Source of the DNA: Candidatus Bathyarchaeota archaeon | GTDB taxonomy: Archaea > Thermoproteota > Bathyarchaeia > Bathyarchaeales > Bathycorpusculaceae | Direction of reading: 5' to 3' | DNA length: 64,000 bases | Assembly (NCBI GenBank): GCA_963715865.1 | Contig: OY970280.1 | Span: 1,662,486 to 1,726,485, forward strand | Shown here: one piece after another, positions 17,594 through 57,614 of the stretch | Position numbering within the stretch: position 1 is the stretch's first letter | How the letters are laid out: each line of letters begins with the position of its first letter | Notes under the pieces: model-generated | The model's input: the letters and a program-made list of their open reading frames with translations, nothing else | Told to the model about the DNA's origin: nothing | Database searches by the model: none | Program-made: the position numbers and the translations under genes

Positions 17594-18951
17594 TTATGAA
17601 TTATAATTACTTATCCCTATAGTTTGGGACTTATTATCCATATTTTTGAAGCTTCCGAAGCGTTTAGGCTTCCTGTAGAAATGCATCGTAATTCCGTTGA
17701 ATGTAGCTTCATCATATTTTGTCCAGCCAGCCTTTCCTAAAGCACGAATCTCTTCAACTGTTGTTACAACGGTTTCCTCATAATCTTCCTCTTTGAACTC
17801 GATAGTATGCACATATTTCTGCGTGCTCTTCCACGACTTATGCCTCAGCAATCTTGCGATAACAACAGCATTCCCATTCGAATAGTACGCTATCATAGAG
17901 CCGCCCCAATGACGGAACGATTTAAAACTGATCTGTAGCAATGCAGGATTCTGGAATTTTGCGGCAGCCTTTACGACGAAGCGCTGCAAGGCATACATAA
18001 GCAGTCCGATAGGTCATTGGAAAAATCCGTTTGTTTTCCCTAGGCAAAGCATTCAACATGCAGGTCAAACGCATCGACAACTCGTATTTACCAGGGTAAT
18101 GGAACTTCACTGGATGATTAATACTGAACACATTATCCTTGAGGTCAATCCATTCAGCATCAAGAATCTCTGACGGATCAGCAAAAGTCTCTTTAAGGCA
18201 CAGCAGAAAAGTAGCCATACGCTTACTCGCAGCACTAATAAGCAAATCAAGGTCTTTCTCATCAGGCACAATGATAGTAGCTTCCCTCTGACGATACAGC
18301 GGACGCTGCCAAACAATCCCCTCCATCTGACAAAACGCATCATAAGCACACACCGCCAGCATTTTCATACTGTCACTCCAAGGCTCACCATTCTTCTTTT
18401 TCTGCTTAGCAATTACCATCTTCACATTTTCAGAGTCCAACAGGTCAGCGCCATCACCGACAAGATGCGTCAGAATATCAGGGTACGTTATATCTTCATC
18501 AAAACCATTACGCTCCAAGTACGCCATGAATTTTGTAATCAAGCCACGCACAGCTTCAGGTAACAGGTCCAGATGCTTCAGTTTTCTTCTTGTCTCCCGC
18601 AACAGTCTTTAATTCTGCTGCAGAGGTCAAATTTTTCGCTCCCAAAGCGCATATTTGGCGTTTAGAAGCTAAGGCACTGGACGTATTTAATGACCTTTCA
18701 GAACTTTCTTGTAACGGTGGTGACCCTTTAAGGGTCGGTCTCTCGCTAAAACGGAATCCGCAATCCCTGCAAAGCCAACGCTGAACACTAGATTTATCAC
18801 TCCTATAACGCAGGCCATCACGATAAACCTTCGTCACCTTAGGACTGCAACTGGGGCATAGGGGGCTGGCGCCATCACTAGCCAACTTGCCCAAACCAAC
18901 ACTGCCAAATACACGCTCTTGAGCAAGACCAACCATTCCCTCCCCAGCCAT
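17594..18951 (-). CDS. Tyrosine integrase with N-terminal IS1-like zinc ribbon, interrupted by two apparent +1 frameshifts (~18575 and ~17970)
   Basis: Three consecutive ORFs join as CPSC...QRWLCRDCGFRFS, core, then FKSFRHWGGS...LLRHKSWKSTQKY (H-x-x-R-like box, H, catalytic Y). Confidence 0.85.
17603..17616 (+). repeat. attL core ATAATTACTTATCC
   Basis: Identical to 57423-57436; lies inside the last codons of the integrase ORF. Confidence 0.75.
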
Positions 18952-19112
18952 CTTAACCCTCCGTAAATACGCGACCGTTCTCTTCAGCCAAATCCATCAA
19001 TTCTTTGCGTTTAGCAGCTTCCTTAAGGCGTCTATCACATGGTCCACAATAATTAACAAACCGAGAAACGACGTCACCGCATTCTCGGCAGTGATGATGC
19101 TCAGGGACGCCT

Positions 19113-19763
19113 TCAGCCAACAGTTTCACCTAACTCGCCTTTTGGACCTACAGAAGAATCCACGGTGACGGCGGCGCCTTCAGCGGCAGCTACTTCTTGA
19201 CCATCATAGGTGAAGCTGACAACTTCGAAAGTTCCAAACGAGCCCTTATGCTGAGGCCTATAATCCAGCAAACCCATCCGGACACCCGCATCTTCCAAAA
19301 TTTCTTTCAGCGTAGCCTCGATGCCTTCAGGCAGCCACTTAACATTATAGACAAGCCTAAACTTTGCACTCCATTGCAATAGTTTCGCTCTGCCTTTAAG
19401 AACCCGCTGCGACTGAATCACAACCGCCCGCTCATCAACCACGTACTGATCCGTACCCAAAGGAATCTTCTCAGGCTCCACACGCATCGTACCAGCAAGC
19501 AAACTCGAAAGCGAAACCCTATGAACCCTGTACTGCTTAGCCGTATTGATAAGCATGCTCTGCACGCATTCCTGAGGAATGTAAAGCTGGTTTTTGCCGT
19601 TGATCACTGCCATGTAAGCGCTGTTCTTTGCATCGTTCTCTGTACTATAGTTCTGCGTCTTCATTTTACTTTTACTTTTCAAACTTTCCGGATTCAACCG
19701 GTTCATTAGCAAGGGCGTTAAGCCCTTAATTTCAACATCTATTTTTTTAAAGTTTTGACTCAT
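19113..19763 (-). CDS. Virus-encoded RAMP/Cas7-like protein, candidate effector of the adjacent repeat array
   Basis: N-terminal IKGLTPLLM, YIPQECVQSML, WSAKFRL and glycine-rich C-terminal AGVRMGLLDYRPQHKGSFGTFEV, the pattern of RAMP/Cas7-group folds; no other cas genes nearby. Confidence 0.7.
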   Translation of the reverse strand: MSQNFKKIDVEIKGLTPLLMNRLNPESLKSKSKMKTQNYSTENDAKNSAYMAVINGKNQLYIPQECVQSMLINTAKQYRVHRVSLSSLLAGTMRVEPEKIPLGTDQYVVDERAVVIQSQRVLKGRAKLLQWSAKFRLVYNVKWLPEGIEATLKEILEDAGVRMGLLDYRPQHKGSFGTFEVVSFTYDGQEVAAAEGAAVTVDSSVGPKGELGETVG

Positions 19764-19768
19764 TTTTG

Positions 19769-20795
19769 TAACCTCACGTTACCATACCTGAGAGCACTGT
19801 AGCTAACGGCGCCCCGCCTTCCCTCACTAAACCAAAATAGCGGCTTACCATGCCTCACAATACATCGCATCACCAAGCCAGGCATCACTGAACTCAACCT
19901 AACTGGACACCGCAAAACATGACCTAACCGCGATGATACCAAGGAATACCACGCATTACGCGACAGGACAGTACCAAGCCAAACTTGACCCCGCCTTAAT
20001 AACGCCAAAGAACACTTCGCCTTGCTGTACCTCACCACTGCTAACCACAATGAAAGCAAAGATTGCAGCAACCGTGCCAAACCGCAACTCACAAAACCCC
20101 GCTTGACATTGCCAAACCTCAATAAAACCATGCCAAGCCTTGCATAACCGTACTTCACAGGACCAAACTTCGCCACGCCGTAGAGTGCCTCGCGACTCCA
20201 AGCCACGCAACGCCGTAATAACGCCAAACCATGCAAAACCATACCGTGCAGTACACCAACCCGCTCCACGATACCAAACAGGGCCTCTCCAAACCACGAT
20301 AACACTTTACCACACAAAACCAAGCCCCGCACCACAGATCCCCACGCAACGCAACAGGACCTCGCTAAGCCACAATAGCACCTAACCGTAGAGAACAAAG
20401 CACCACTTGACCCAACAGAACCGGACTCCACTCCGCTACACCATAATAAAAGCTTGGCTTGCCTTGCTTCACCCAACCGGACCGTTCCCTGCCATAATGA
20501 AAGCTTAGAGAAACTATCCTCGCAAAGCCGTACCTTACGATACCTAACCGGACAGGACAGAATAGTGCCATGCAATACTAAACCTCGCAACGCCTCAATA
20601 ATAGCAAACCTAGCAAACCTTACTTTACTCAACCTAGCAGTACAGGGCCTCACAAGACCTAGAAACACAAGACCAGACCTAAGAATACACTGCCGGGCAC
20701 CACTACACACCACAGGACCATACCTGACATCAATAGCGCCACACCTTACCTTAGAGGACCGGGCAACACCGCATCTTACCCCACGACACTTGACC
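19769..20795 (-). ncRNA. Array of ~178 pentamers (NGY-NN) in ~13 blocks split by GYTATT-like spacers; candidate guide-RNA array
   Basis: 5-nt periodicity seen directly (e.g. GGT-CA AGT-GT CGT-GG GGT-AA GAT-GC GGT-GT); separators GCTATTGA, GCTTTCATTAT, GTTATCGT, GTTATTAC, GTTATTAA, GCTATTTT; sits between a stop codon and the RAMP ATG. Confidence 0.8.
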
Positions 20796-21548
20796 CTAAA
20801 CATGAAAACGCAACCTCTCAAAATCCAAATGCGCCCGATTAACCAACTCTTTAATGACAGGATCATCCAGCGGAAAACGCCCCGACTCCGCCAGACTACA
20901 AAACAGCACCAAAGCGTTCTTCAGCTCCACAAGCTCACGGCCACTCAAACCAGGCTGAACCTTCCCATTCTTGGAATCCACATGAAACCGCTTGCCGCAT
21001 GGCGCCGTCAAAGTCACAATAGGCGCAGCAGACTCACGGTAAATCTCAGCAGCCGGAACATGCACAAGCGCCACGATATCTTTCACGTCAAATTTGAACT
21101 TTTTAAGCCGAGCAATGTTATCCTTAAGCTCCACGTCGCTGAAACCCTTGCCATGGCCACTATTAAGCCTCACCGCCTCAGCAAACAACTCAGCCTCACT
21201 AGAAAACGGCAACTCAGAACATTCCGCATACTCAACCTTGCGAAGCTTCCGAGAACTAAACCGATGAACACCATCAACAAGAATCTTCTGACCCTTGAAA
21301 ACGCCAACCTTCAAAGTTGGAAAAACACAACCCGCATCCAAAGCCCTGGCATAATTTTCAACAACCCTCTGATCAATCTCCTTACGCGGATAAAGACTCC
21401 AATCAAAAACCAGATCAGCAAGCTTCTCAATACGAACTGGCGCCCTATCCCAATCCTTAAACGCAAAACCAGCAGCTGGCTTAACCTCAACGCTCTTTTG
21501 CGGAGCAGGCGGCATATAAACAACTTTACCAGCAACAGGAGACTTCAA
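20796..21548 (-). CDS. ParB/Srx N-terminal-domain protein
   Basis: LYPRKEID, ILVDGVHRF, AVRLNSGHG. Confidence 0.8.
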   Translation of the reverse strand: MKSPVAGKVVYMPPAPQKSVEVKPAAGFAFKDWDRAPVRIEKLADLVFDWSLYPRKEIDQRVVENYARALDAGCVFPTLKVGVFKGQKILVDGVHRFSSRKLRKVEYAECSELPFSSEAELFAEAVRLNSGHGKGFSDVELKDNIARLKKFKFDVKDIVALVHVPAAEIYRESAAPIVTLTAPCGKRFHVDSKNGKVQPGLSGRELVELKNALVLFCSLAESGRFPLDDPVIKELVNRAHLDFERLRFHV

Positions 21549-21757
21549 CTAGACGCCTCCAGCTTTGGCTTTTTCAACGGTATAAAAACAACCGGGTGCT
21601 TATCCAACCGACTAAAAATACACCTGTAACCCTCAGCTTCAAGGGCAGTCTTCCAAGCAGCATCGAACTCTGGCTTCTGAATAACTAGGCACTCTCCATA
21701 CGGCGTCACATCTTTAGGCGGACCAAAACGCGACTTAAGCTCATCAACCGAAACCAT
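21545..21757 (-). CDS. Viral hypothetical protein
   Basis: Overlapping stop/start with the ParB-like gene, operon strand. Confidence 0.55.
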   Translation of the reverse strand: MVSVDELKSRFGPPKDVTPYGECLVIQKPEFDAAWKTALEAEGYRCIFSRLDKHPVVFIPLKKPKLEASS

Positions 21758-21933
21758 CTAAGCCGGAACCTCCAATGAGCCAAAAAATAAATCATGCCTC
21801 TTTTTTTTGAGAAGTTTAACTGTGTTCCTTAATGCTTTGTTGTCTTTGTGAAGCTGTGATATCAAGTTGCAGTTATCTTTGATGCTACTATTGATAATTG
21901 CCAAGTCTTTGCTGATTTGCTGCAATTCCTCAG

Positions 21934-22296
21934 TCAAACAGAAACCTCCAAAGGTTTTTTCGCAAATAAGACTTCATTCGGCATGTAGAGGCCAGCCGTT
22001 GCAGCAACAACCTTAGGCACCCCATCCTCATAATAGGAACTGCACGCGCTTTCGTTTACGCGGCGATCCCACCAACGCTTCTCATGAACCCTGTAAGGCC
22101 AACGCCTACAATCACGCAGCACAGCAATCCTGCTGCAAACCTCCAAGTAAATCTGCCTTAAACTAACCGGCTGCGAAGGCATACCCATCTTGCTCAGGAT
22201 ATCGCTTTTCTGCCTGTGCAAACTAAAGATCACTTCACGAATCAACTGCCTGAGAATCCGCAAGCTCCCGGCTTTCAGCAGGCCTACCCTGAGCAC
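21934..22296 (-). CDS. Viral hypothetical protein (possible winged helix)
   Basis: ORF on operon strand; SLRQIYLEV...RRVNE pattern. Confidence 0.45.
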   Translation of the reverse strand: MLRVGLLKAGSLRILRQLIREVIFSLHRQKSDILSKMGMPSQPVSLRQIYLEVCSRIAVLRDCRRWPYRVHEKRWWDRRVNESACSSYYEDGVPKVVAATAGLYMPNEVLFAKKPLEVSV

Positions 22297-22326
22297 GCCA
22301 ACCAGCCGCCTTATAGGTTTGCTCGC

Positions 22327-22557
22327 TCATTTCTCAGGTCCCTCTATGATTTTGTCTAGTTTCTTCTGAGCGTAAGCTTCAATCCTGACAGTAACATTAT
22401 GCCCTAACGGGTACTCCTGGTACAGTGCGGAACTCTCGCTCTTAATAGACAACTTCATTTTCGGGTCACTGCATTCCAGCGTAACCTTGAACACTGGCAA
22501 TTCAGCGGCGTTCTGGCTTTTCGTATGACTGCGTACAATCATGTCATATTCAGTCAA
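22327..22557 (-). CDS. Viral hypothetical protein
   Basis: Coupled to the upstream ORF. Confidence 0.6.
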   Translation of the reverse strand: MTEYDMIVRSHTKSQNAAELPVFKVTLECSDPKMKLSIKSESSALYQEYPLGHNVTVRIEAYAQKKLDKIIEGPEK

Positions 22558-23410
22558 GCTTCTTCACCTCTGTTTTTCTCGGTTTATTTTGTAAGCGATA
22601 GAACTCTCTGATTTTTTCAAAGATTACATTACGCAACTTGGCATCGACAGCATCGCGCTCAGGCTTCCACTTGGCATCGACAGCATCGAGCTCAGCGTTC
22701 CACTTGGCATAGACAGCATCGCGCTCAGGCTTCCACTTGGCATCGACAGCATCGCGCTCAGGCTTCCACTTGGCATCGACAGCATCGCGCTCAGGCTTCC
22801 ACTTGGCATAGACAGCATCGCGCTCAGCGTTCCACTTGGCATAGACAGCATCGCGCTCAGGCTTCCACTTGGCATCGACAGCATCGAGCTCAGCGTTCCA
22901 CTTGGCATAGACAGCATCGCGCTCAGCGTTCCACTTGGCATAGACAGCATCGCGCTCAGGCTTCCACTTGGCATAGACAGCATCGAGCTCAGCGTTCCAC
23001 TTGGCATAGACAGCATCGAGCTCAGGCTTCCACTTGGCATCGACAGCATCGAGCTCAGCGTTCCACTTGGCATAGACAGCATCGAGTTCAGCGTAATATC
23101 TCAACAAAAGCTCTTTTGAAATGCCGTTAGGATCTTGATTCTTTAGCAACCGCACAGATCGACAAACACATTTCTTGTTCTCATCACTCCAAGCCTCAAT
23201 TCCATAAGCCTCAGCGAAAAACACTTGACAATCAGAGTTAAGCCAGTCCCGTGGGTCCATCGTTAAATGAAAACCCCGACTGCACATCGACAAATTGCCT
23301 TTCACAATATATTTCTTGCCAAGCTTCCAGGTCTGATGACCACCGTTGTAGCTCTGCATGTTCCGCAGGACTTTGAAAAGAATCACAGGTTTTTCTTTTT
23401 TATCAGTCAT
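22550..23410 (-). CDS. Viral protein with N-terminal C..GFH domain and ~14 x 11-aa helical repeats
   Basis: GNLSMCSRGFHL domain followed by repeats DAV(Y/D)AKW(NA/KP)E(L/R). Confidence 0.75.
   Translation of the reverse strand: MTDKKEKPVILFKVLRNMQSYNGGHQTWKLGKKYIVKGNLSMCSRGFHLTMDPRDWLNSDCQVFFAEAYGIEAWSDENKKCVCRSVRLLKNQDPNGISKELLLRYYAELDAVYAKWNAELDAVDAKWKPELDAVYAKWNAELDAVYAKWKPERDAVYAKWNAERDAVYAKWNAELDAVDAKWKPERDAVYAKWNAERDAVYAKWKPERDAVDAKWKPERDAVDAKWKPERDAVYAKWNAELDAVDAKWKPERDAVDAKLRNVIFEKIREFYRLQNKPRKTEVKKLD
22637..23093. repeat. 33-bp tandem repeat, ~14 copies, coding
   Basis: Unit cttggcat(c/a)gacagcatcg(c/a)gctcag(gc/cg)ttcca seen directly. Confidence 0.95.
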
Positions 23411-23646
23411 GCTGGCGGCGCCTCCAAATCAGGAACCCGTTTATCAATCAAACTCTTAGTCGCAGCACTGGCCTGCATTTCAACTTCACGACGCCACGCC
23501 TCCAACTCCTGCAGCCGACCCTCATGATCAGCCCTGCCACGCTTCAACTCAGCAACTTCACCGCACAAACGCTCAAAACAACCGCCCAAACCTTCCAGCG
23601 CACGCTTAAACGCAACAGCAACATGTTTCGCAAATTTTTCGCTCAA
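23407..23646 (-). CDS. Coiled-coil viral protein
   Basis: Heptad-like VAELKRGRADHEGRLQELE; coupled to neighbours. Confidence 0.55.
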   Translation of the reverse strand: MSEKFAKHVAVAFKRALEGLGGCFERLCGEVAELKRGRADHEGRLQELEAWRREVEMQASAATKSLIDKRVPDLEAPPA

Positions 23647-23948
23647 GAAACAGCCTCCTTTTTGTCCTTGCTGAAGGAATCCACAAGCTTAGGCTTACAT
23701 TTGCCGAACGGAACATCCACGCACCGGACACCTGGATTATCAGCGCAAAAGAGCAGTTGCGGATCCAACTTTTCACAAACCACGCCTACAGCCTCCTAAC
23801 AGGCCTACGCTTACGCCAAAGCCAAGGAGGGCTACCGTTCTTGTTTAGGAAGCAATTTGAGGGGGAGAGAAGAGCAATAAAACCAGCTCGAGGCTTAAAA
23901 CTAAACTTCCCAAAAGCAAATCCTTCAAAAAGCCTAATCCCCAAGGTA

Positions 23949-24089
23949 TTAGCCCTCCTGCTTGCAACCTTGCAAAAGTAGATGCTCTATTACCTCAGGA
24001 ATCGTACGATTCGTATTTTCCGCGATTTTTTCAAGTTTACCATAAATAGCATCTTTTACGGTTATGCTTCTATAGCCTTCTCGTGGCAT
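23949..24089 (-). CDS. Ribbon-helix-helix-like regulator (46 aa, absent from ORF track)
   Basis: Manual translation MPREGYRSITVKDAIYGKLEKIAENTNRTIPEVIEHLLLQGCKQEG. Confidence 0.7.
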   Translation of the reverse strand: MPREGYRSITVKDAIYGKLEKIAENTNRTIPEVIEHLLLQGCKQEG

Positions 24090-24207
24090 TCACCTATCTC
24101 CTTGAATGTACTCTATTGTACCGTACCATATATAAGATTTGGGTACATTCTGGTACATGAAATAACGTTTATATAGAATGTACGGTACATTCTGTTTTGA
24201 CACAATC
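24090..24207. promoter_or_regulatory. Divergent promoter/operator region with GTAC-core repeats
   Basis: Perfect palindrome GAATGTAC-G-GTACATTC (24176-24192), half-sites at 24104 and 24143, TATA-like TATATAAG (~24129) and TTTATATAG (~24168). Confidence 0.7.
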
Positions 24208-24393
24208 ATGCCAAGAATAGGATACAAAAGTATAACCGTACCTAACGATGTTTACGAGTTTTTCAAAAATGAATGGTTAAAAAACAAAGATCAACTACGC
24301 CGAAGAGGAATCCGTAGTTTCTCTGGGTATGTTACTTCTCGTCTTAATCAATTAATGGAAGAAGAAGAGAAGAAACGTAATGAAGAAACGTAA
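24208..24393 (+). CDS. Ribbon-helix-helix-like regulator (repressor candidate)
   Basis: MPRIGYKSITVPNDVYEFF, paralogous N-terminus to 23949-24089; one of few plus-strand proviral genes. Confidence 0.7.
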   Translation: MPRIGYKSITVPNDVYEFFKNEWLKNKDQLRRRGIRSFSGYVTSRLNQLMEEEEKKRNEET

Positions 24394-24655
24394 TCACTAA
24401 CACTCACATTAAGGTCTTCAGCTCTCTGTGCTAATTTACGGTAAACTTCTCTTGAAACAAATAATTTCTTCAAACAGACTCTTAGCGCAAAAATACATCA
24501 AAACCCTATATAAAACCAATCCCAAAACAACCATCCAGCACAGTGGAGGGTGCACTGAAAGTAAAATTACCACGTACATTGTAGGTTTCGGAATCCAATC
24601 CAAGCCACTTTAAAAGCACCTTCGGAATCAATTCCAAACTACGTATATTCAAGCC

Positions 24656-25513
24656 CTAAGATGTACGTGGTAAACTTGGCGGAAAAAGCAACGTTTGAAT
24701 TTGCTTACCGTACTTCACAGCCATGGCTGTCTTGATTTCTTGATATTCAGCAGGATCCAAGGAAGTTCCGCAGCACGGACAAATCGGCGTACCCTCCGGA
24801 ATAGTTTCGGGTACCATAATTTTTTTAGGTTTAGGCTCTGTAGACGATGTAACCGATGTAGACGATGTGGGAATTCCCTCTTTTTTGCTGTCGGATATCT
24901 CACTACTGGAAGTAACCCTATGCACTTCCTCTTCTCGCGCTGTCTCATACTTTGATTTTAGCGCCTCCGAGATTTTTCCCGATGTCTCACTCTTAAGTTC
25001 TTGAGGCATGTACTTGTAAATTGTTTTTTTACTAATGCCTGTGACTTTAGCGATTTCTTCAGGCTTCAACCCGGCCTTAACAAGAAAAGTTACGCGCTGC
25101 GCAATCTCTTCAGGCGAAACTTTGCGCCTGTTAAAATTAGCCGCCAACATAGCTAACTGAAGCTTAACAGGCGTATCAATTTGAGGCCTCACTTCAGTAT
25201 GCCACTTCGGGTTTTCCCCCAGCCTATGGAAACCATCAATAACATTCCCATGCGCATCCATCAACACCGGATACAGTTCGCCAAGCCCTTCACCTGATGT
25301 GGCAAGACTGTAAGGCGCTTCCTCATCCGCTTTCGGCTCTTCTACCTCTTCTACCGCCTCTACCTTCTCTACTTCCTCTACCTCAGTTTCTTCAAGTGCC
25401 TGTTGAGTCAGGGGCGCAGGAACAGGCCCATAATGACTATGCGACCAATGAAGTCTATACTCAAGCCCTGAATCAAAAACCCTATGGCATTTGGGACAAG
25501 CAACCTTACCCAT
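24656..25513 (-). CDS. C2H2 zinc finger + ParB-like domain + HTH protein
   Basis: CPKC...HWSHSH; YPVLMDAHGNVIDGFHR; PEEIAKVTGISKKTIYKY. Confidence 0.75.
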   Translation of the reverse strand: MGKVACPKCHRVFDSGLEYRLHWSHSHYGPVPAPLTQQALEETEVEEVEKVEAVEEVEEPKADEEAPYSLATSGEGLGELYPVLMDAHGNVIDGFHRLGENPKWHTEVRPQIDTPVKLQLAMLAANFNRRKVSPEEIAQRVTFLVKAGLKPEEIAKVTGISKKTIYKYMPQELKSETSGKISEALKSKYETAREEEVHRVTSSSEISDSKKEGIPTSSTSVTSSTEPKPKKIMVPETIPEGTPICPCCGTSLDPAEYQEIKTAMAVKYGKQIQTLLFPPSLPRTS

Positions 25514-25738
25514 CTACAACGCCTCCGCAATTATCGCAAGAGCCTTAACGTTCCGGTCATAATGACCCTCAAAAGCTTCTGTCTTGCCCTGAAAGACCCG
25601 ATTAAGCTTTTCGCGCAACGGATCATAAGGCGGCAGCCGAACCACATTCCGATCATTGATGTTGTAAAACTTCTTGCCATTCCAACTGAACTCCAATAGC
25701 CACGGCGCCACCTTGCTCTTACGCAAAAACATCTTCAT
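25514..25738 (-). CDS. Viral hypothetical protein
   Basis: Abuts the downstream ORF. Confidence 0.5.
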   Translation of the reverse strand: MKMFLRKSKVAPWLLEFSWNGKKFYNINDRNVVRLPPYDPLREKLNRVFQGKTEAFEGHYDRNVKALAIIAEAL

Positions 25739-26117
25739 AGCCCAGCCTCCCCACTATACCTTACCCAAGAGCAACCAGAACATTTCCTTCCAGGACGCCT
25801 AGCTAAAGTCGGCGGATTCTGCGGACAATAAGTAGCGGTGCAGATTGGCCGCTGCTTCACCATAAACCCAACCCCTTAACACCCTTCAAGCTTGCCAGAG
25901 TTTTTTCCGTTCGATCTAAGACTGCGCTTCGGTTAACTGAATCAATCACAGAACCCTTGTAGATCTGTACCGTGTAAAAGTTTGCGCGGTAATCGATTTT
26001 TGCTTGAGTGTTCATTTTGCTTATTCCTCACGTAACTGTAATAGTCACAGTAAGATATAAACGTGACGGTGACAGTTACATTTAAATATTAAGCAACACA
26101 TGATACCTTGAGGAAAA

Positions 26118-26297
26118 ATGAGACAATACATACTAACACCGCAAGAGAGAGAAATCATCAAAAAATACCTAGAAACAGGCGAAAAGCATGTCTGGTTCAG
26201 AATGCTACTATCCAGGTGTCGCCACATGGAAATCGTGCAAGAAGACCTGCAGTTAATTGAGCAATTCCTCAAAAAAACAGAAGGCGGAAAACCGTGA
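26118..26297 (+). CDS. Small hypothetical protein (59 aa)
   Basis: Manual ORF MRQYILTPQEREIIKKYLETGEKHVWFRMLLSRCRH... Confidence 0.55.
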   Translation: MRQYILTPQEREIIKKYLETGEKHVWFRMLLSRCRHMEIVQEDLQLIEQFLKKTEGGKP

Positions 26298-26446
26298 CGT
26301 TAAAAACAATCAATGTTTATTTGCGAATAATCGCTTTTATGGCGTTCGATATGCTTATGTTCCCAGATTTAACGGTTAAATTGTTTTGGCGTGTACTTCA
26401 CAATGATATTCCATAGAAAAAAAAGCAGGAAATAGGCGAATAAAAA

Positions 26447-26716: not shown

Positions 26717-26804
26717 GATGTACGTAGTAAATAGCCTCCGCTGAAATCTTAATTTAAATGCCGAAAAAAAAGAGCAAAACGTGCTCTCCAAGCGAAAAAA
26801 AACA

Positions 26805-48516: not shown

Positions 48517-48542
48517 CTTGTTTTCAATCCTAAATTAATTTG

Positions 48543-48863: not shown

Positions 48864-50254
48864 GAGTTTTTCACTTCAGTAATCAAAAACGATTTTCCGT
48901 CTTGCTGAATCATCGCTTGCTTCTGCGTTCCTTTAGGCGCTGGAAGCATCTTAGGCTGTTGCTGATTTTGGATGGGAAGAGGCGTTTCAGGTTCAGGCGG
49001 CGTCTCTGGAAAACCAAGCTGCACTCTTGCCTCAGAAATCTGAACTATGCCAAGTTGCACTAAAGGAACCATGTAAGCCGCTTTTTCCTGCAAAGAAGCT
49101 TCCCAAATAGGCTTCCACTTAATCTCGGGAATTTCCGTACCCTCGCCAAACTGCATTTCAACAAGCTGCTTAAACAACTTCGTTTCCAAAACGTCGCTAA
49201 TAAGTTCCTGTATCATCCTGAGTCTAGTGACGTATTCTTTCATGACTGTATCGCTTGTGGCGCGGTTTGTGCCTTGAGATTCACCCATGAAGATTTTTGG
49301 CACGCCTAAGACGGCTTCGCGTTGCTTGTAGAGGTAGTCAAGCCAAAACTGCAAGTTAACCCCTGTCGTCAACGAAGGCACCACATCAACCGTAACGTCA
49401 CCGCGAACGAAAGTGTCTGAGGCGACTCTGCGGTTCTGGAACGTACTCATAAGCGATGTTAATTGCGCATCGCTGAAAGGTCTCTCTGGAGTGCCTGCTT
49501 TAATGACAAGCATTGGTTTCGTGTAAGTGTGAACTATCGTTGCGAAATCGTTTTCAAACTGGTCAAGCAAAGCTTGAACCTTCAAAAGCGGACGCAGCAG
49601 CGAGGTGCCATAGCTGAATTCGTACCACCATGATTTAGCGCCCCAGCAAAACTGAACCATGTCTTGCGCAATAAACGCGACAGGAGGAAAAGTCAAAAGC
49701 TGAATGTATCCGAAGACGTCGCCATACTCATTTCTGCGAACGCGAATATGCACGGGATCCAGCGGTTTTAGCCAACTGATCGCGCCTGTCTGTTCATCCT
49801 TGCACAGCTCCAAATAAGCATTGCCGAAAACCAAAATGTCCGTAGCTACAATGCGAAGAGTATGCAAAATATTCTGTTCATCAAGCCAATCCGTAAGCCA
49901 CTCGCGAACCGCATCATCCCCGCCATCCAACTCGAAACCATTGCTCATAGCCAAGTTAACGGTGACATCAATCGCCGCTTTAATGTATGGGCTAAAATTG
50001 TATTGGTCCTTGTATTTGGGCAGGTCCTCGATTGGCACGGCGCCCCAGACACGTTCCCAATAAGCCGTGTAGGGCGGAACCACGAAGCCTGCGCCACTGC
50101 CCTTAAGCATGAATTTGTTGACGTAGCCCATGAGGTTGCTGTCTTTTTCCCACGTGACAGGGATTTCTTCGCGGATTTGCTGCGTGCTAACTTGTGGCGG
50201 AACGTCACGTTGCGCGGTGAATGCGGATTTGTCTATGGTGCTTTTCAAAGGCAT
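48860..50254 (-). CDS. Portal protein
   Basis: VFGNAYLEL, LDPVHIRV, YGTSLLRP, LGVPKIFMG; follows TerL. Confidence 0.88.
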   Translation of the reverse strand: MPLKSTIDKSAFTAQRDVPPQVSTQQIREEIPVTWEKDSNLMGYVNKFMLKGSGAGFVVPPYTAYWERVWGAVPIEDLPKYKDQYNFSPYIKAAIDVTVNLAMSNGFELDGGDDAVREWLTDWLDEQNILHTLRIVATDILVFGNAYLELCKDEQTGAISWLKPLDPVHIRVRRNEYGDVFGYIQLLTFPPVAFIAQDMVQFCWGAKSWWYEFSYGTSLLRPLLKVQALLDQFENDFATIVHTYTKPMLVIKAGTPERPFSDAQLTSLMSTFQNRRVASDTFVRGDVTVDVVPSLTTGVNLQFWLDYLYKQREAVLGVPKIFMGESQGTNRATSDTVMKEYVTRLRMIQELISDVLETKLFKQLVEMQFGEGTEIPEIKWKPIWEASLQEKAAYMVPLVQLGIVQISEARVQLGFPETPPEPETPLPIQNQQQPKMLPAPKGTQKQAMIQQDGKSFLITEVKNS

Positions 50255-50473
50255 TTAAAAATCACTATCTCTAAAAACTAAGCCTCTTTCTTCTCGGCTT
50301 TTTCGTTTGTTACTATGATTTCTTCCCAAACCACGTTTTTAGTGATGTCCACGCCATCAACGTAAACATGTAAATCTGTTAGGTTACAATTCACAGTCAT
50401 GCCTAACGCTTTAACCTGCTTAGTTTTATCGCTTGCTGAAAATAACTCCTCTTTCAAGTTAAGTCACCATAAT

Positions 50474-51766
50474 TTATAACTCTCTTATGAACGCGGCGCC
50501 GACACCAGGCGGGGCTTGTCCTGTTTTAATCTGCCAAGCAGCCAAAGCTAATGTGATAACCGTATCATCATGCAGGCCTTCAGGCGCTCCGTATTGAATC
50601 AGGCCTGACGGCATAAGATTGTAAGTGAAAGATTCGAGTTCTGATTTTAAAACTGGAAACTGCTCATCTAAAGCGCTTGAGAACTCTTTTGTTGCTGGGT
50701 TGCCTGGGAACCAGATTTCGCCATTATCCAGCATAATGCTCAAGTTTTCTATAAGCGCTTTTTTGGTTGTGTTCGTAAGTTTATAACCGCTAACCCCGCT
50801 GTATTCACGCTGTAATTCGTCGTAGACAGGGTCGCCGACGCCTGTACTATCCACAAGTAACGGTGCATTTCCGAAGCGTCTGCAGAACGCAATTATTCTT
50901 TTCCGCTGGAAAGGCCAGTCTATTTGGTTGAAGCGTTCGTAGCCTACGACTTCGCCGTTCATGCGTAAGGCGATGTTTACGGTGAAATCCACAGTTTTGC
51001 CAAGGTCACTGCCAACCATAATGGACTCGGTAAAACTTGGGTTATATGGTTTGATGTCGTCTCGTATGCGGTCTGCGATATGTCGGAAGACTACGCCTTC
51101 GCCTTCCAGTTCTTCCGCGTAGATTTCTTGGCGCCTAAGCAACTCGGGCATGTCATTAGCGATTGCGTCAATGTTTGCTTTGGGTAGGAACCCGCCATTT
51201 TCAGTTGCGTTGTCGTAGCTGCTTCCACGCCAACTTTTATATTCTGTTTCAGATAGGTCAAACCCTTTCGCTAATATATAACTGAACCATGTTTTACCTT
51301 TTGGCGTACCAATAAACAAGACTGACCCATTGTAGTCCATGAGGCTTGGTTTTAACTCTGCTTCCCACCTGTTCGGTTTCAGCATAGGAGCCTCATCAAT
51401 CGTTAAGTGATGCAGCCCTGAGCCACGCAGACTATCTTCTCGGTCGGCGCTATGAAAGAAGCATTCGCTTCCATTTTTAATTCGGATATAACGAATAGTT
51501 TCGTTGCTTTCGAGTTGCTTAACTATTAAGCTATGTGGTGTAAGGTCGCGAACTTTCTTTGTTGCAGGAATCAGTTCTTTGTAGAGAGGCGCTACCCACC
51601 AAGTTAAACAGTTTGGGTTTTTGAGCATAAAGATAAGGTTTTTTATCCACGCTAACTCGGTTTTTCCCCATCTTCTTCCAGCTTCAACCGTTTGGTATCG
51701 GTGATTGTCATAATAAACTTCAAGTTGCTTTGGATGCATCCGAAATGGGATGTTGACTATTGTCAA
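50474..51766 (-). CDS. Terminase large subunit
   Basis: AGRRWGKT, LRGSGL...IDEA, IGTPKG, DLGKTVDF, HDDTVITLALA. Confidence 0.93.
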   Translation of the reverse strand: MTIVNIPFRMHPKQLEVYYDNHRYQTVEAGRRWGKTELAWIKNLIFMLKNPNCLTWWVAPLYKELIPATKKVRDLTPHSLIVKQLESNETIRYIRIKNGSECFFHSADREDSLRGSGLHHLTIDEAPMLKPNRWEAELKPSLMDYNGSVLFIGTPKGKTWFSYILAKGFDLSETEYKSWRGSSYDNATENGGFLPKANIDAIANDMPELLRRQEIYAEELEGEGVVFRHIADRIRDDIKPYNPSFTESIMVGSDLGKTVDFTVNIALRMNGEVVGYERFNQIDWPFQRKRIIAFCRRFGNAPLLVDSTGVGDPVYDELQREYSGVSGYKLTNTTKKALIENLSIMLDNGEIWFPGNPATKEFSSALDEQFPVLKSELESFTYNLMPSGLIQYGAPEGLHDDTVITLALAAWQIKTGQAPPGVGAAFIREL

Positions 51767-52157
51767 TTATTTCCACTCGGAAAATTGCTGTTTGATTTGT
51801 AACATTAACTTCTACCTTAGCTTGTTTCTCCAAGACCTTCATGACAAGCCTTGTTAAGCCTCTGAATGCTTCGGCTCGGTCTTCCCCTTTCATTTTTTCG
51901 TATTGTTGATGCCACTCAATAAGTAAGTGTTGCGCTTGGTCCGTTTTTGCCCATTCTTCAAAATCACGATAAAGCGTGGTTCTGTCGCAATTTAATTCTT
52001 CAGTTAAAATCTGAATTTCTTTTCCGTTGAATATGCCCTCGATTAGGCGTTGGCGTCGTTCTTGGATGCTGAGTTGTTTAGGTGTTAATGTTGCATTTTG
52101 TTGCATTTTTGGTTTTTGAGGTTTTAATCCGAGAGCCTCTTCATAAGAAATAGACAT
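51720..52157 (-). CDS. Terminase small subunit candidate (HTH)
   Basis: LTEELNCDRTTLYRD HTH; overlaps the TerL start. Confidence 0.6.
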   Translation of the reverse strand: MSISYEEALGLKPQKPKMQQNATLTPKQLSIQERRQRLIEGIFNGKEIQILTEELNCDRTTLYRDFEEWAKTDQAQHLLIEWHQQYEKMKGEDRAEAFRGLTRLVMKVLEKQAKVEVNVTNQTAIFRVEIIDNSQHPISDASKAT

Positions 52158-52167
52158 TTCAGAATCC

Positions 52168-52467
52168 TCAGTGCGCAAGAATCAAGTAAGTTAATGCAGA
52201 GGCTATTGCTGCGCTTACGATTGAGATGAATAAGGGTTTAAGCACGTTAATCCAACTTTTTTGAACCTTGTTAGCATCGCTAAGCTGGTCAAGTTTAGTC
52301 AAAATTGTGCGGATAATGCCCGTATTCAAACCCGTGCAATCTTCACCGAGCAAGGCAATTAACGCTTTTTCGATTTGGCTAATGGATGCCGTGCTTTTGT
52401 TAATTTGGGTAACATAAGGGCAAACTGGATTTTTATATGCAGTTTCGCATTCGCCGTTTTCGCTCAT
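52168..52467 (-). CDS. Coiled-coil protein with C-terminal TM
   Basis: CPY...coiled coil...hydrophobic tail. Confidence 0.55.
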   Translation of the reverse strand: MSENGECETAYKNPVCPYVTQINKSTASISQIEKALIALLGEDCTGLNTGIIRTILTKLDQLSDANKVQKSWINVLKPLFISIVSAAIASALTYLILAH

Positions 52468-52718
52468 TACTGGAACGCTCCTGCACCGCGACTGTCAGAA
52501 ATTACGAGACCCTGAGGAGTGTCAGGAATCAGCTCAGGAACGATCTGTGCGCCCAAAGCCAAGTTTACAGCAGACACCGTATCATCCTCATCGCCTAAAT
52601 AAACAGATTCATGAAGCTTCGAGTCCCAGAAACTATTAGCCAAGCAATGCTGCCTAGCCTTCTTGAATTCTAAACTGTCCCCTGAACGTTTTTTACGATG
52701 CACCAAACTAAGATACAC
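52467..52718 (-). CDS. Viral hypothetical protein
   Basis: Coupled to the downstream ORF. Confidence 0.4.
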   Translation of the reverse strand: MYLSLVHRKKRSGDSLEFKKARQHCLANSFWDSKLHESVYLGDEDDTVSAVNLALGAQIVPELIPDTPQGLVISDSRGAGAFQ

Positions 52719-52822
52719 CCCATTTCCTCTGTCCCGTTTTAGGTTCGGGCGGGCGTTAGAGAAAAATCCGAGCCTCTAAACAGAGACTTGCTATAGCATG
52801 TTGAATGTTAGTGAGCGTCTGC

Positions 52823-53146
52823 TTATAAAACATGTGATTTCAAACTAGCCAATTCTTGAAGAGCAGGATACCGCGGATCGTCAATTGCAAGCAAATTATC
52901 ATAACGCCGCATGAAATCACAGCCCAGACCAGAAGTAGAATAAACCGTGCGTTTGCCAACAACTTTTTTAACTAAAAAACCAGCCTCAACCAAACCACCC
53001 ATAAAGACAGAAGAAACATTAGCTTTCCGCGCAACCTCCGAAATAAGCAAATTTTTACCTCTACAACAAACCAAAACATCATAAATTATAGAAAGCCGAT
53101 TACGAGGTTTCTTCCTAGTACACCTCCTCTCATGACTCCCCATCAT
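52823..53146 (-). CDS. Archaeal winged-helix transcription regulator
   Basis: RNRLSIIYDVL...ISEVARKANV...LVEAGFL...YSTSGLG. Confidence 0.7.
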   Translation of the reverse strand: MMGSHERRCTRKKPRNRLSIIYDVLVCCRGKNLLISEVARKANVSSVFMGGLVEAGFLVKKVVGKRTVYSTSGLGCDFMRRYDNLLAIDDPRYPALQELASLKSHVL

Positions 53147-53657
53147 CCTGCACCTCCTCTTTCGATTCTTCAACCTCTGCCTCAGTGGCGCCATACGCGT
53201 CAAACGCGAACCTCGTCAAAGCCCACCGGTGCCCACGCTTCTCAAACAGCACCTTACCAGTCTCAAAATGCAAACGCTTATTCATCCGCACAATCCTACG
53301 ACTCACATCATAATATTTCAGACCGTATGCACCCAGCTTATTGACCCACTCAGCAACATCCTTCGGAAAAACACCCGCATCACCCACTTCACGCACACGC
53401 TGCAGAATCTCCCTATCAGCCTGATCCTTAACAGCAAAGCCCTCAACCGTCGGCTCATCATAATCAGCCTCACCGATTTTCTCCAGCCTATGCCGAATCC
53501 AACGAAGCTCAGTCAAAATCCGTTCATTCTGACCTTTAACCTCTTTCAGCAAAACCGTCTGATACTTAATCCTGCCAACTTTATCCTCTTGACTACGCCC
53601 TTTTTTACACGTTTGAACAACTTTTTCGCTAGACGCTTGCGCATCCTGTTCAATCAA
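53130..53657 (-). CDS. Winged-helix hypothetical protein
   Basis: DREILQRV...VFPKDVA...KRGHRWALT. Confidence 0.6.
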   Translation of the reverse strand: MIEQDAQASSEKVVQTCKKGRSQEDKVGRIKYQTVLLKEVKGQNERILTELRWIRHRLEKIGEADYDEPTVEGFAVKDQADREILQRVREVGDAGVFPKDVAEWVNKLGAYGLKYYDVSRRIVRMNKRLHFETGKVLFEKRGHRWALTRFAFDAYGATEAEVEESKEEVQDDGES

Positions 53658-54065
53658 GGTCTTTCCACTCCATCAACAACACCGAAAATATAGTGCCCCG
53701 CATCACTCTCAACCACTATCAGAAACCTCAAAGCCGAAAGCATGGAAAAAGTCCATGCAAAAACACCCCGAAAAACAGCTCCAAAAAACTTTAAGCAGCC
53801 TTTCACATCCAACAGGTTACTACGTACATCAGCTAGGGCACAGAAAACTCTGCTATGTACATCACAGGCCCTAGCATGTACGTAGTAACTCACCTAGAAA
53901 CCTCCTCTTTTTTATGAAAATGCGAGCAACTTTTATTTCTAAAAGGCTGCGGCTGCTGCGGATTACTATAATTATATTCAGTTTGAAAACCAGCTTTCCT
54001 ATTTAACCGACAAATCGCACCCTTAGCAAAACAATCTTTACCGTCGATGTCACAAACTCCAAAAA

Positions 54066-55083
54066 TCATCTAACATAATCTCCAAGTTTCTTCTGGCCCT
54101 CAGCAAGACGTTTCGGGTCTTCCACATCACCAAGCTTACCTAAAACTTCCGTAAGCTTATTCACGTTGAAAGCAATCTTCTCAACCGCAGACTCAAGATT
54201 CTCAATCTTCCTCAGAGGCGACTTACTGAGTACATTATAGATAGCTTCCTGCAACCGCTCAACCCCAAGCAACCGCGAGTTATTAAATTTCAAAGCTTCA
54301 CCAACACGCTTAACCTCCTGCTTCAACTCAAAACTCGCCTGCAACTTATCATGATCAGTGAAACCTTTCGAAATAACCTCCTCAAACTTTGTCACGGACA
54401 TCGGACGAGTAATCTTGCGCTCCTTACGCACTAAGTTCTCTTCTTTCTGGTAAACCCGCTCAACCATACCAAACAAATCAAGTTTCGTGACACATTGAAC
54501 CCCATCAATCCGCACACCATAGTAATCCTTGTTACACTCAAACGTGAGCAGTTCTAAATCATTAAGTTGCCAACCCAAATGATCCTCAACCACGTCAAAC
54601 CAACGATGCAACGCAAGTAGGCAGGCATCATGACTCATCCCGCCAACATCACAAGCAACATACCCCGAAATCTTCCGCCTCTCACTCCCAAAACAAACAT
54701 GAATCTTAACCCCCCCAACAAACTCGTCAACCTCCCAATGCTTCACATCTTGACAAACAAAACTCCGCAAAGAAATATTATGCACACAAAGAGGCACGAA
54801 CCGCATACCATAGGTGATTTTGTTACAGTAACTTCCAACATACGGCTGCAGGACAAGCCCTTTCTCAAGCAGTTTACGACAGACAACCCTCACAGTAGTA
54901 TATTGACCACGCCTAGGCTTCCTTGGAGCATGGATTATTCTGGCAATCTCTGCAGGTCTAAGCTCAACTTCTGAAGCATCGATAACGTGAAAGGCACGCG
55001 CCTCAATACCCCAGTGCCTTTCCGCTAAACTGTTTAAACTGGTGTTGCTAGGTGTCCGTTGAAGTATCAGATTTACCAGCCAA
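54066..55083 (-). CDS. Winged-helix + coiled-coil protein (replication initiator candidate); start uncertain, possible +1 frameshift near 55050
   Basis: Frame stays open upstream of the tracked GTG: LRPAEIARII...TVRVVCRKLLEKGLVLQPY wHTH. Confidence 0.55.
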
Positions 55084-55180
55084 AAAATGCAGCTCCGCTA
55101 AGCGAATTCTTTGAAACCGCAACTACGGCAAACAATAAAGCGGCCTTCGCGCCTAGCCTTTTTACGACAAACCTTCACGC

Positions 55181-55303
55181 TCATTTCGGCAACCCCTTCT
55201 CTGGATGATATTTAAGACCAATCTGACAAGGACAAGCGGTTGAACCGCAATTCCTGCAAGGATCATAATCCAAATCCAGCGTTGCGTCAGTACAGTTGCT
55301 CAT
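55181..55303 (-). CDS. 40-aa Cys-rich peptide
   Basis: Manual ORF MSNCTDAT...PCRNCGSTACPCQ with upstream GAGGAG. Confidence 0.4.
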   Translation of the reverse strand: MSNCTDATLDLDYDPCRNCGSTACPCQIGLKYHPEKGLPK

Positions 55304-55483
55304 TTACTACGTACACTCCTCTCTCCGCTTACCATCCATCCTGACATCCCAATACTTCCCGCCAGGACAATGATTATAGCAAACGCAGCAATCATCGCAA
55401 AGCATCAGACGCCTGCCAAAACCGCTGCAACCAACAATCGGATTCCAAGTAAAATCCAAATACTCAATCTTAGTACGATTCAA

Positions 55484-57169
55484 TCAAGAAACCTCCTTGA
55501 ATTTGACGCCCTGCGCTAGGCAGTAGTAGTTGCGGTCTGTGTGCTTCTTGGCGATCAGGTCCTGCTTTTCTAAATCGTTAAGCGCATTATTGACTTCCTG
55601 AGGAGTAGCATTCCAACGCTCATCCTGGATAGCTTTCACAATATCGTCCAAGCGGCGCCACGTATCCAACTTGCCTTTCCTGGCGACCTCGAGGATTTTT
55701 CCACGCATATTCTCAGTGTTGATAACTACGAGTTTCTCAGTTGCCTGCACATCCACGATAGTTGTCGAAGCCTGCAGCCCAACCGTAGCGGCGCCTTCAG
55801 ATGGTTGGCTACTTGAGGGTAATACAGCAGGTAAATTCTTAGCCAACTCTTCAACTCGAGTAATATTATCATAGATGTTCTGGACATTCAAGGCTAAGCG
55901 AAGAGCAATCTTGAGATTATCGTAATCCTTCAGCTCCTGATCCTTCGCCTCGAGGCGCTTCTCCAGATCAAACTTCACTTCACCAAGAAACTTTAGCCGC
56001 TGCTGCACGGAATCCGCTAATTTACGGCCAGAACGAAACTCCTCAATCTCGATGCGTAACGCATCAACTTCAGCCTGGAGGATCTTAAGTTGTTGTGCAT
56101 CAACATTGTTTATCGATGCATCTACTGGTGCAGGTGTCGATGAAGGCTCAAGCATCTCTTTTACTGAGAGCTTAATCTGAGCCGATTTTTCAGCATCCTC
56201 TAGCTTTTTCTGTGTCTCACGCAACAGCCGCTTAGTCTTCTCTAAGTCAGATTCTTCAGTGCGTTCTTTTTCAAGTGCCGCCATGATTGATTTTGCGAGT
56301 TCATCAACAGTCTGCTTAACTTCGCTCGCACGTGGAGCAACATATTCCAAGCTAGGAGTATCGGCGCCATGCTTAGTTAGGCGTTTTTCCGTCACCGTCA
56401 CAAATTGGCTTTGGCTGCCAAGAACCACAAACCACTCGCCCTTCCCAAACCGCGTCAATTGCTCAGCCCGAATCTCCACGCCATTCTTACGCACAGTATC
56501 CAAAACCTCTTTGTCCAGGTACTTGGTGTCGTGGCTAGCGAATTTGCCGTAAAAAGTCACATTCGCAAGCTGCCGAATCGTAAAATTAACTTCCTGCGGC
56601 CTCTGACTGCTCTCAACGGTGATAATGTTAAGCTTCCTACCCTGCGTACTGCAATCCTTGAAAGCCTTAATCATCCGATTATAAACCCATGGAGGCGCAA
56701 TGTGCCCAGCCGTAGAATTCGGCAAGTACTCCTGAGATTCTTCTGGGAGAATCATTAACGGCCTATGATGCGTCTCCTGCAACTTCATTATCGCATGCAG
56801 AAAACGCGAAACCCAATCAACAAGCTTAGCTTCATCTTCGACGTCGGAAGTGTAGAAAATCATAGAAATGCCATTTTCAACCACGGCCTTCGCATACGTC
56901 AATGGCGCCGTCAAAGCAAAATCCACATCCTTCGCGTGCACGCCGCCGACGCTGAGAATATCAAACTTTTCTTTGAGCGTAAAGTATTCGTCTCGCGGCT
57001 GGAAAATAACGACAGTACCGCCCTGCAACAGAAACTGCTCAATCATCAAAGCATTATTGAAGGACTTACCAGATCCAGGACCACCAAAATTCGCAATGCG
57101 CAAGCCTTCACGACAGAACGGCTCTGCATCACTATCAATTACAAGGTTTTCACTAAAACGAAACTTCAA
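55484..57169 (-). CDS. HerA/DUF87-like P-loop ATPase with coiled coil and C-terminal wHTH
   Basis: Walker A GGPGSGKS, VIFQPRDEY, ILPEESQEY, SSQRPQ. Confidence 0.8.
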   Translation of the reverse strand: MKFRFSENLVIDSDAEPFCREGLRIANFGGPGSGKSFNNALMIEQFLLQGGTVVIFQPRDEYFTLKEKFDILSVGGVHAKDVDFALTAPLTYAKAVVENGISMIFYTSDVEDEAKLVDWVSRFLHAIMKLQETHHRPLMILPEESQEYLPNSTAGHIAPPWVYNRMIKAFKDCSTQGRKLNIITVESSQRPQEVNFTIRQLANVTFYGKFASHDTKYLDKEVLDTVRKNGVEIRAEQLTRFGKGEWFVVLGSQSQFVTVTEKRLTKHGADTPSLEYVAPRASEVKQTVDELAKSIMAALEKERTEESDLEKTKRLLRETQKKLEDAEKSAQIKLSVKEMLEPSSTPAPVDASINNVDAQQLKILQAEVDALRIEIEEFRSGRKLADSVQQRLKFLGEVKFDLEKRLEAKDQELKDYDNLKIALRLALNVQNIYDNITRVEELAKNLPAVLPSSSQPSEGAATVGLQASTTIVDVQATEKLVVINTENMRGKILEVARKGKLDTWRRLDDIVKAIQDERWNATPQEVNNALNDLEKQDLIAKKHTDRNYYCLAQGVKFKEVS

Positions 57170-57318
57170 GAAATAACCTCCGAGTGTTTTTTCAATCGCA
57201 TGTTATGCCCAGGCTTAAACCTCAAAATATGATCACCTGAACGCTGAGGCACAGGCTCACCACAACCGCAAAGACAAGTACGCAGAACCCTATGCTTAGG
57301 TTTCTTAGGCTGACTCAA
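57166..57318 (-). CDS. 50-aa CxCGCG...GH zinc-binding peptide
   Basis: Manual ORF MSQPKKPKHRVLRTCLCGCGEPVPQ...FKPGHN; TTGA overlap with the ATPase start. Confidence 0.6.
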   Translation of the reverse strand: MSQPKKPKHRVLRTCLCGCGEPVPQRSGDHILRFKPGHNMRLKKHSEVIS

Positions 57319-57422
57319 CAAAAAGCCTCCAAATCGCTCAAGCTACAAACAATCATGAAGGAAACGCAAAAAACTACAGAAAAAGAGGAAGGTATGCGGG
57401 AGACATCGCCACTTCCTAGAGG

Positions 57423-57436
57423 ATAATTACTTATCC
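57423..57436 (+). repeat. attR core ATAATTACTTATCC inside the palindrome AGAGGATAA-TTAC-TTATCCTCT (57418-57439)
   Basis: Identical to 17603-17616; inverted arms typical of tyrosine recombinase sites. Confidence 0.75.
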
Positions 57437-57614
57437 TCTGTTTTCCGCATTTATACCCATAAAGCAAGAGCCTTTTTTGAATTAACTTGAGAAACCCTGT
57501 TAAAGTGTCGTTTCGTTAAAAAATAATTTGGTAATTTTTGGTTATGCTAAAACCTAATTACTTCCCTGCCACAATTAATCTTTAAATCATGGCTTAGCAG
57601 GCTGGAGGCATGGC

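Follow-up and report, generated by a model that had tools for sequence, protein, structure and literature searches.

A head-tailed provirus in a Bathyarchaeia genome with an integrase reading frame that crosses the attachment core

The 64,000-nucleotide stretch of DNA analysed here (the window; positions 1662486-1726485 of the single-contig genome C1, 2.35 Mb, 42.8% G+C) comes from a Candidatus Bathyarchaeota archaeon and carries a head-tailed provirus with a tyrosine integrase gene (int) at its left end. A 14-bp repeat bounds the provirus, its left copy lies within the 3' end of int, and the predicted C-terminal residues of the integrase depend on the integration state, the reading frame crossing the attachment core. 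We consider it most probable (about 70%) that this exchange of the C-terminal tail passively follows from the compact int-attP cassette of a core-overlapping integrase and would not constitute a regulatory device.

Attachment core and integrase reading frame

Exact copies of the core, ATAATTACTTATCC, were found on the plus strand at both positions named in the original prediction, 17603 and 57423 (0.03 matches expected by chance). The identity covers exactly 14 bp and the flanking bases disagree on either side. The right copy sits within a palindrome with 9-bp arms, as had been noticed before, and with a 4-nt spacer; the palindrome probably represents core-type inverted half-sites. The features of the junctions and of the int gene are as follows.

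17603..17616, no strand: attL core ATAATTACTTATCC, overlapping the minus-strand integrase codons (G)ISNY; the left-flank similarity of the relative G018 ends at 17616
57423..57436, no strand: attR core, the same 14 bp; in the empty site of G018 the core is followed by 57437-57452
57418..57439, no strand: hybrid palindrome around the attR core, AGAGGATAA-TTAC-TTATCCTCT, read from the sequence
57315..57422, minus strand: would-be 35-residue tail of the circular form (PLGSGDV...EAFC, stop), translated across the core
57395..57412, minus strand: putative attP-arm motif GTGGCGATGTCTCCCGCA with a CCT/T-rich tract after it; encodes GDVSR of the episomal tail
18556..18951, minus strand: integrase fragment 1, with the Zn-ribbon N-terminus; frameshifted by one additional base at 18582
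17922..18602, minus strand: integrase fragment 2, N-terminal/core-binding region and first half of the catalytic domain; frameshifted by one additional base at 17970
17594..17998, minus strand: integrase fragment 3, KSFRHW, LRHKS, catalytic Tyr in QKYVH and small C-terminal domain; for the extension, the model of a relative (P0016) predicts disorder

Forty relatives were searched with the ferredoxin encoded in the left flank, and larger stretches were then retrieved. The closest congener (G018, locus L031/L002; ferredoxin 81% identical) harbored an empty site, in which the similarity to the left flank runs to 17616 and ends there, and left flank, core and right flank follow one another as TTTTATGAATT/ATAATTACTTATCC/TCTGGTTTT, the right flank matching 57437-57452. 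Read over a longer distance, the junction is ...GTTTTATGAATT/ATAATTACTTATCC/TCTGGTTTTTGCA.... Past it lie a 484-residue open reading frame (ORF) for a major facilitator superfamily (MFS) transporter-like membrane protein and then a luciferase-like (LLM) oxidoreductase gene; neither the arm motif, nor a match to any ORF of the window, nor mobile-element genes were found in that stretch. Because G018 carries the predicted empty site, the 14-bp repeat is the true att core and the junction is correct. Alignment with a provirus-free relative had been proposed at the outset as a check, and the flanks joined at the expected position rather than at a different one. The ends of this Bathyarchaeia provirus are thereby precise and checked against relatives. 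A third copy of the 14-mer, on the reverse strand at C1:1054408-1054421, lies outside the window, inside a dnaJ-like coding sequence. Its flanks share no similarity with attL or attR, and the copy is probably a coincidence, or possibly a secondary site.

The last minus-strand int ORF (17594-17998) ends with ...TIGISNYNS and a stop; (G)ISNY comes from the core, NS and the stop codon from the host flank. The terminus ...IGISNYNS, predicted for the integrated form, was thus right for the last ORF but not for a whole protein, since the gene is frameshifted twice and this ORF is only its last fragment. In-silico joining across the core into the right end gave ...ISNY-PLGSGDVSRIPSSFSVVFCVSFMIVCSLSDLEAFC-stop, the reading proposed for the circle, and natural counterparts of it occur in un-integrated relatives. 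After the conserved ...FYRKPKRF, the C-termini of homologous integrases form discrete classes (...GISNYNS, ...RVDRFLCSA/V, ...GGLKTSL, each with a stop, and others) that end 1-3 residues past a class-specific core; these classes may represent the integrated state at different targets. Three proteins are longer: P0016, P0047 and P0078 read through a class-B core into tails of the type G.GD[VI]SR.P.SF.... In their contigs (L043, L044/L045 and L047) the integrase is followed by more genes on the same strand, the contigs tested gave no match to the host genes flanking the provirus in the window, and past the integrase L043 and L044 continue with a match to the attR arm of the window. Since read-through of the respective core occurs in three un-integrated relatives, the layout is common to the integrase subfamily. 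The comparison of homologous C-termini, suggested together with the original prediction, yielded both the core-specific classes and the read-through forms.

The splitting of int into three ORFs by two +1 frameshifts had not been noted earlier. Over 17587-21549 the window is 99.85% identical to a public contig (L046), in which the integrase, of 451 residues (P0001), is intact. Compared with L046, the window has one additional base at 17970 (T3 vs T2), one at 18582 (T4 vs T3), and in addition four substitutions. These six differences are confined to 680 bp of int (17903-18582), the other ~2.97 kb having none, which suggests a recombination tract, int-specific decay or a mixed-strain contig. As the gene is frameshifted twice, the copy present here probably cannot excise unaided, provided that the frameshifts are not errors of the assembly. 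The odds seem even that the provirus is a locked-in relic, i.e. that its integrase is a true pseudogene and neither excision nor tail exchange takes place in this strain. The clustering of the six differences, unlike scattered assembly error, and the fact that many congeners retain only remnants at the site speak for such a relic, whereas both indels lie in short homopolymers (T2/T3 and T3/T4), typical of long-read error, and the other proviral genes examined appear intact.

The search for homologues of the integrase gave 510 hits, mostly from Bathyarchaeia metagenomes, typically proteins of 420-470 residues in which a linker connects the N-terminal Zn ribbon to the tyrosine recombinase part. 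Three further homologues, 28-39% identical to P0001, are encoded in the same genome (C1:933185-934342, 936001-936849 and 563994-565142) and indicate more integrated elements there. Immediately upstream of int, at 18953-19129, lies a 58-residue Cys-rich (Zn-finger-like) ORF, whose product is a candidate partner or directionality factor.

Tail exchange, integrase fold and arm motif

The events are best explained as follows. A head-tailed archaeal virus of ~39.8 kb integrated into the chromosome by site-specific recombination between the 14-bp attP core and the same 14 bp of attB, located in the conserved region upstream of the host ferredoxin gene. The recombinase is the ~450-residue Zn-ribbon tyrosine integrase encoded at the left end and reading toward the junction. 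As in the rest of the subfamily, its frame runs past the last folded element (...FYRKPKRF) through ~20 variable codons into the core and, in the circular form, would continue over the arm DNA motif and the T-rich tract. Integration would swap a variable, predicted-disordered tail of 35 residues for two host-encoded residues and a stop, while the catalytic and folded parts of the integrase would all be kept.

An AlphaFold model was built for the relative P0016 from a 50-sequence alignment, and not for the joined protein of this element. Confidence was high over the Zn ribbon and over residues 120-430 (to KRF), the latter including a small beta-alpha-beta-beta domain after the catalytic Tyr; residues 431-482 (pre-core spacer, core-encoded residues and tail) had predicted local distance difference test (pLDDT) values of 29-46. 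In Foldseek the model matched XerA (5hxy, E=1e-8), P2 Int, HP1 Int, lambda Int and Cre, all with a probability of 1.00, in agreement with a two-domain tyrosine recombinase whose C-terminal catalytic domain resembles that of XerA, lambda Int and Cre. The fold search succeeded where a sequence search of the PDB with P0001 returned nothing useful. Residues K281, K342..R345, H369 and Y378 of P0016 are invariant, and in most subfamily members, but not all, an invariant Arg stands beside the conserved His (LRHKS). The position of the first catalytic Arg is occupied by Asp (ETFADPSE, residues 252-260 of P0016) in more than 90% of the 50 homologues; in the window it falls at ~18150-18180 on the minus strand (...LKETFADPSEIL...), and a distant relative has the canonical TAMRPGE. 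P0001 scored 17.0 bits with PF00589, short of the gathering cut-off of 27.1, the integrase fragments of the window gave no hit and some more distant homologues carry the domain; the family is divergent.

The only conserved stretch of the tail coincides with the arm motif. The window, G015, G012, L043 and L044 carry the 18-nt GTGGCGATGTCTCCCGCA without any difference, and L047 carries a near-identical form; as far as the search pattern covered it, L048 and L049 have the identical sequence too. No third-position (synonymous) variation was seen within the motif, in contrast to the coding sequence next to it, in which every third base varies, and the motif is identical in five elements though their integrase genes are only ~70% identical. 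The genome contains 18 copies of the motif GTGGMGATRTCNCCCGCA with its CCC/T-rich tract at up to 3 mismatches (0.7 expected) and 10 at up to 2 mismatches (0.04 expected). The sites in C1 include 124128, 191701, 1209962, 1432852, 1732433 and 1740318, the only one in the window being 57395-57412, and the ~17 others fall outside any integrase frame. GDVSR is thus conserved as DNA and not as codons, and the motif behaves as an attP-arm DNA element, which would bind the N-terminal domain of the integrase or a partner protein, or aid the termination of int transcription. The centre of the motif is palindrome-like (GGNGATRTCNCC). An RNA hairpin was considered and rejected, as positions 5 and 12 did not covary in the 18 copies; a DNA palindrome is more likely.

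Several of the genomic copies lie beside tRNA 3' fragments not called as genes by ARAGORN. Just beyond the right edge of the window, two motif footprints follow tRNA-Ala (C1:1731489-1731563) at distances of 0.9 and 8.8 kb, the nearer of which includes a copy of the 3' end of that gene. The footprints likely represent serial integrations, and their remnants, of the same integrase family, and the motif, with its 18 copies in this genome, offers a search handle for such events.

An integrase with attP inside its coding sequence is known from the Myxococcus phage Mx8, in which, according to PMC6070905, integration creates a new 3' end (IntP becoming IntX) and changes the behaviour of the enzyme; the Islander paper (PMC4383910) lists the Mx8 and SSV integrases as extending across attP. 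The arrangement described here resembles Mx8 in that attP lies in the 3' coding part of int, a new 3' end arises and the catalytic domain is kept. The integrase ORF spans the attP core in silico in the window, and this was seen directly in L043, L044 and L047. Unlike in Mx8, the host is an archaeon, integration is into a probable promoter region instead of a tRNA gene, the integrase begins with a Zn ribbon, and 35 residues would be exchanged for 2, all past the predicted fold. In Mx8 about a hundred residues are reportedly exchanged, and the changes in activity are said to have been shown experimentally. The layout therefore varies a documented arrangement, and the archaeal integrase family in which it occurs is uncharacterised.

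The original prediction went further and proposed that the C-terminal swap could tune stability or directionality. Two observations weakened this proposal: the exchanged residues begin only after the P0016 model has ceased to be confidently folded, and the tail varies in length and sequence, its sole conserved stretch being conserved as DNA. A functional switch of the Mx8 IntP/IntX type would mean that the tailed episomal form favours integration, or is unstable or membrane-associated, and that the form ending in NS stabilises lysogeny or biases the direction of recombination. We regard such a switch as unlikely, even though three independent un-integrated relatives, like the predicted circle, show read-through into a tail starting with G.GD[VI]SR, three of the four elements (the window, P0016 and P0047) have a hydrophobic tail, and the Mx8 account (PMC6070905) demonstrates that a new 3' end can alter integrase behaviour. 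Across the elements the tails measure from 14 to more than 40 residues and share nothing past GDVSR; the GDVSR stretch shows no synonymous change and recurs at the ~17 genomic sites mentioned above, away from any integrase frame; and the P0016 model predicts the tail to be disordered. Moreover, the integrase of a distant relative (L054) stops ~75 nt before its core and motif, which argues that the overlap is dispensable. The whole integrase subfamily would thus carry the attP core inside a dispensable 3' end of int, adjoining a conserved arm motif.

More doubtful still is a broader proposal, in which the int ORF traversing the attP core and the palindromic arm motif would form a self-contained directionality device without a separate excisionase, either because the tail reports the integration state or because the motif serves at once as arm-binding site, terminator and tail-coding sequence; the family might in addition work without the canonical first catalytic Arg.

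We therefore infer that the tail would have no function of its own and prefer passive exchange, with several points weighing against this preference. Exact scans for the attP junction in viral and metagenome contigs gave no match, and the predicted class-A tailed integrase was absent from the protein collection, in which integrated forms only were found. C-terminal tails of tyrosine recombinases can regulate in trans, predicted disorder is no proof of a lack of function, and the comparable swap in Mx8 does have consequences. The structural argument comes from P0016, whose tail had few aligned homologues, and the hydrophobicity of the tail in three of four elements could matter. A degenerate arm-plus-core pattern retrieved attR-type junctions only, and when the LLM, ferredoxin and HerA-like proteins were looked up by exact match, in order to find contigs of the same strain with empty or circular junctions, nothing was on record. 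On present evidence, the layout by itself reveals no new mechanism, and tail-based regulation is unlikely.

The integration site

The provirus separates two host genes that diverge from each other in the empty site.

17083..17565, minus strand: host 2x[4Fe-4S] ferredoxin gene; ~40-50 bp separate its start from the att core, which is upstream
57615..58571, plus strand: host luciferase-like (LLM) oxidoreductase gene, the other member of the divergent pair

The left flank contains leuB and the ferredoxin gene, and the right flank contains the LLM oxidoreductase gene, ilvD and a leuA-like gene; genes of the leucine pathway thus lie on both sides, as originally observed. The placement of the rebuilt attB in the divergent intergenic region of the ferredoxin and LLM genes, upstream of the former, was also confirmed. 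Neither a tRNA nor an Rfam RNA was found at the rebuilt attB or at either junction, the only tRNA of the window being at 12553-12658; an RNA gene as attB was accordingly rejected, in line with the earlier statement that the target is not a tRNA. The ~45 bp between the core and the ferredoxin gene are near-invariant across the genus, and a TTATAA-like box straddles the boundary of core and flank. Since this box spans the boundary, the conserved stretch is a probable promoter, and the target would be under promoter constraint.

Among congeners the interval between the ferredoxin and LLM genes ranges from ~0.2 to 12 kb. In at least eight of them the core is followed by 40-220 bp of an integrase 3' remnant beside the ferredoxin gene, and the attR form (arm motif and core) was found in four other sequences, G015, G012 and two metagenome contigs, in one of which it lies directly upstream of an LLM gene. 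In G015 and G012 the attR-type copy is 2.2 and 8.3 kb away, respectively, and these elements are smaller or decayed relatives in the same site. Integrases ending in ...GISNYNS ~40-45 nt upstream of a 155-residue ferredoxin were also found in two unrelated contigs. Because this adjacency persists although the other neighbours differ, the target travels with the region upstream of the ferredoxin gene. The picture is that of a non-tRNA integration hot spot in the probable ferredoxin promoter region, reused throughout a genus.

The retention of the 40-220-bp integrase 3' end by several congeners without the full element could mean that the 14-bp repeat is coincidental, that the element ends elsewhere or that the integrase 3' end next to the ferredoxin gene belongs to the host, but this is highly improbable, because G018 has no integrase sequence at all and its flanks meet exactly at the core, the inner ends of the remnants vary (from 17644 to 17820) as the decay of older insertions predicts, and G015 and G012 hold matching attR copies. 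A boundary near 17750, first suggested by congeners that keep the last ~50 integrase codons beside the ferredoxin gene, was ruled out by the empty site of G018 together with the variable remnant ends.

In one congener (locus L039, G022:C5), a degenerate arm-like sequence, the core and an integrase 3' end follow one another at ~3336. Such a chromosomal attP-type junction is as expected from tandem insertions.

Comparison with known elements and the provirus body

The review of archaeal tyrosine recombinases (PMC8371274) distinguishes classical integrases from the 'suicidal' SSV type, in which attP splits the gene into Int(N) and the catalytic Int(C). The element described here shares with the SSV type (type I; SSV1, pTN3 and pT26-2; PMC8371274) an archaeal host, an att core inside its own integrase ORF and a compact int-attP cassette. 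However, SSV integration parts Int(N) from Int(C) and inactivates the gene, whereas here the whole folded protein is encoded at attL: all folded and conserved parts remain there, and only the codons after ISNY differ. PF16795 (Phage_integr_3), characteristic of the SSV type, gave no hit at E<=1.

With the classical type II integrases (pNOB8/lambda-like), as presented in PMC8371274 and PMC11705971, the element shares a gene that stays whole after integration, a location at the provirus end by attL and short flanking direct repeats. It differs from them in that the core overlaps the end of the ORF instead of lying downstream and in that the target is intergenic, in a probable promoter region, and not a tRNA gene, although the other genomic footprints of the same arm motif do adjoin tRNA 3' fragments. 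The layout thus falls between the 'classical' and the 'suicidal' types. In PMC11705971 and PMC10848311, on Bathyarchaeia (pro)viruses, integrase genes, tRNA genes and direct repeats serve as markers of the integration site; the site described here departs from them in not being a tRNA gene. The likeness to the head-tailed (pro)viruses of the same papers (PMC11705971, PMC10848311) extends to TerL, portal, HK97-type capsid and tail tube and to glycosyltransferase, methyltransferase and radical-SAM accessory genes.

17617..57422, minus strand: head-tailed provirus body; the unit with one core copy is 39,820 bp
50474-51766: large terminase (TerL), phrog_2, 1e-28
48860-50254: portal, phrog_9232, 3e-30
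44114-45055: HK97-type capsid, phrog_1650, 6e-16, with PF25209
33520-34389: tail tube, PF18906, 1e-16
36600-38699: glycosyltransferase / methyltransferase, PHROG/Pfam matches
39707-40705: glycosyltransferase, PHROG/Pfam matches
38811-39749: radical-SAM protein, PHROG/Pfam matches
55484-57169: HerA/FtsK-like ATPase at the right end, PHROG/Pfam matches

A terminase, a portal, an HK97-fold capsid and tail proteins, the set of a Caudoviricetes-like element, were thus all found. In a related 39-kb virus (L052, IMGVR_UViG_3300031862_000761), the homologue of the 216-residue gene of the left end (19113-19763) adjoins the HerA-like gene: the order runs from a ParB-like gene through the 216-residue gene to the HerA-like ATPase and then to a different integrase (34% identical). 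This gene order supports the predicted joining of the two ends of the provirus in the window. As a different integrase follows the HerA-like gene in L052, the int-attP unit is an exchangeable cassette, differently placed in related genomes.

Two further regions of the provirus body stood out. Between the ParB-like and the 216-residue genes, at 19760-20866, long overlapping ORFs occupy several frames of a sequence of repetitive, odd composition, whose similarity is kept in L052. At 22537-23157, inside the ORF 22550-23410, a 33-bp unit encoding 11-residue repeats occurs 13 times in tandem.

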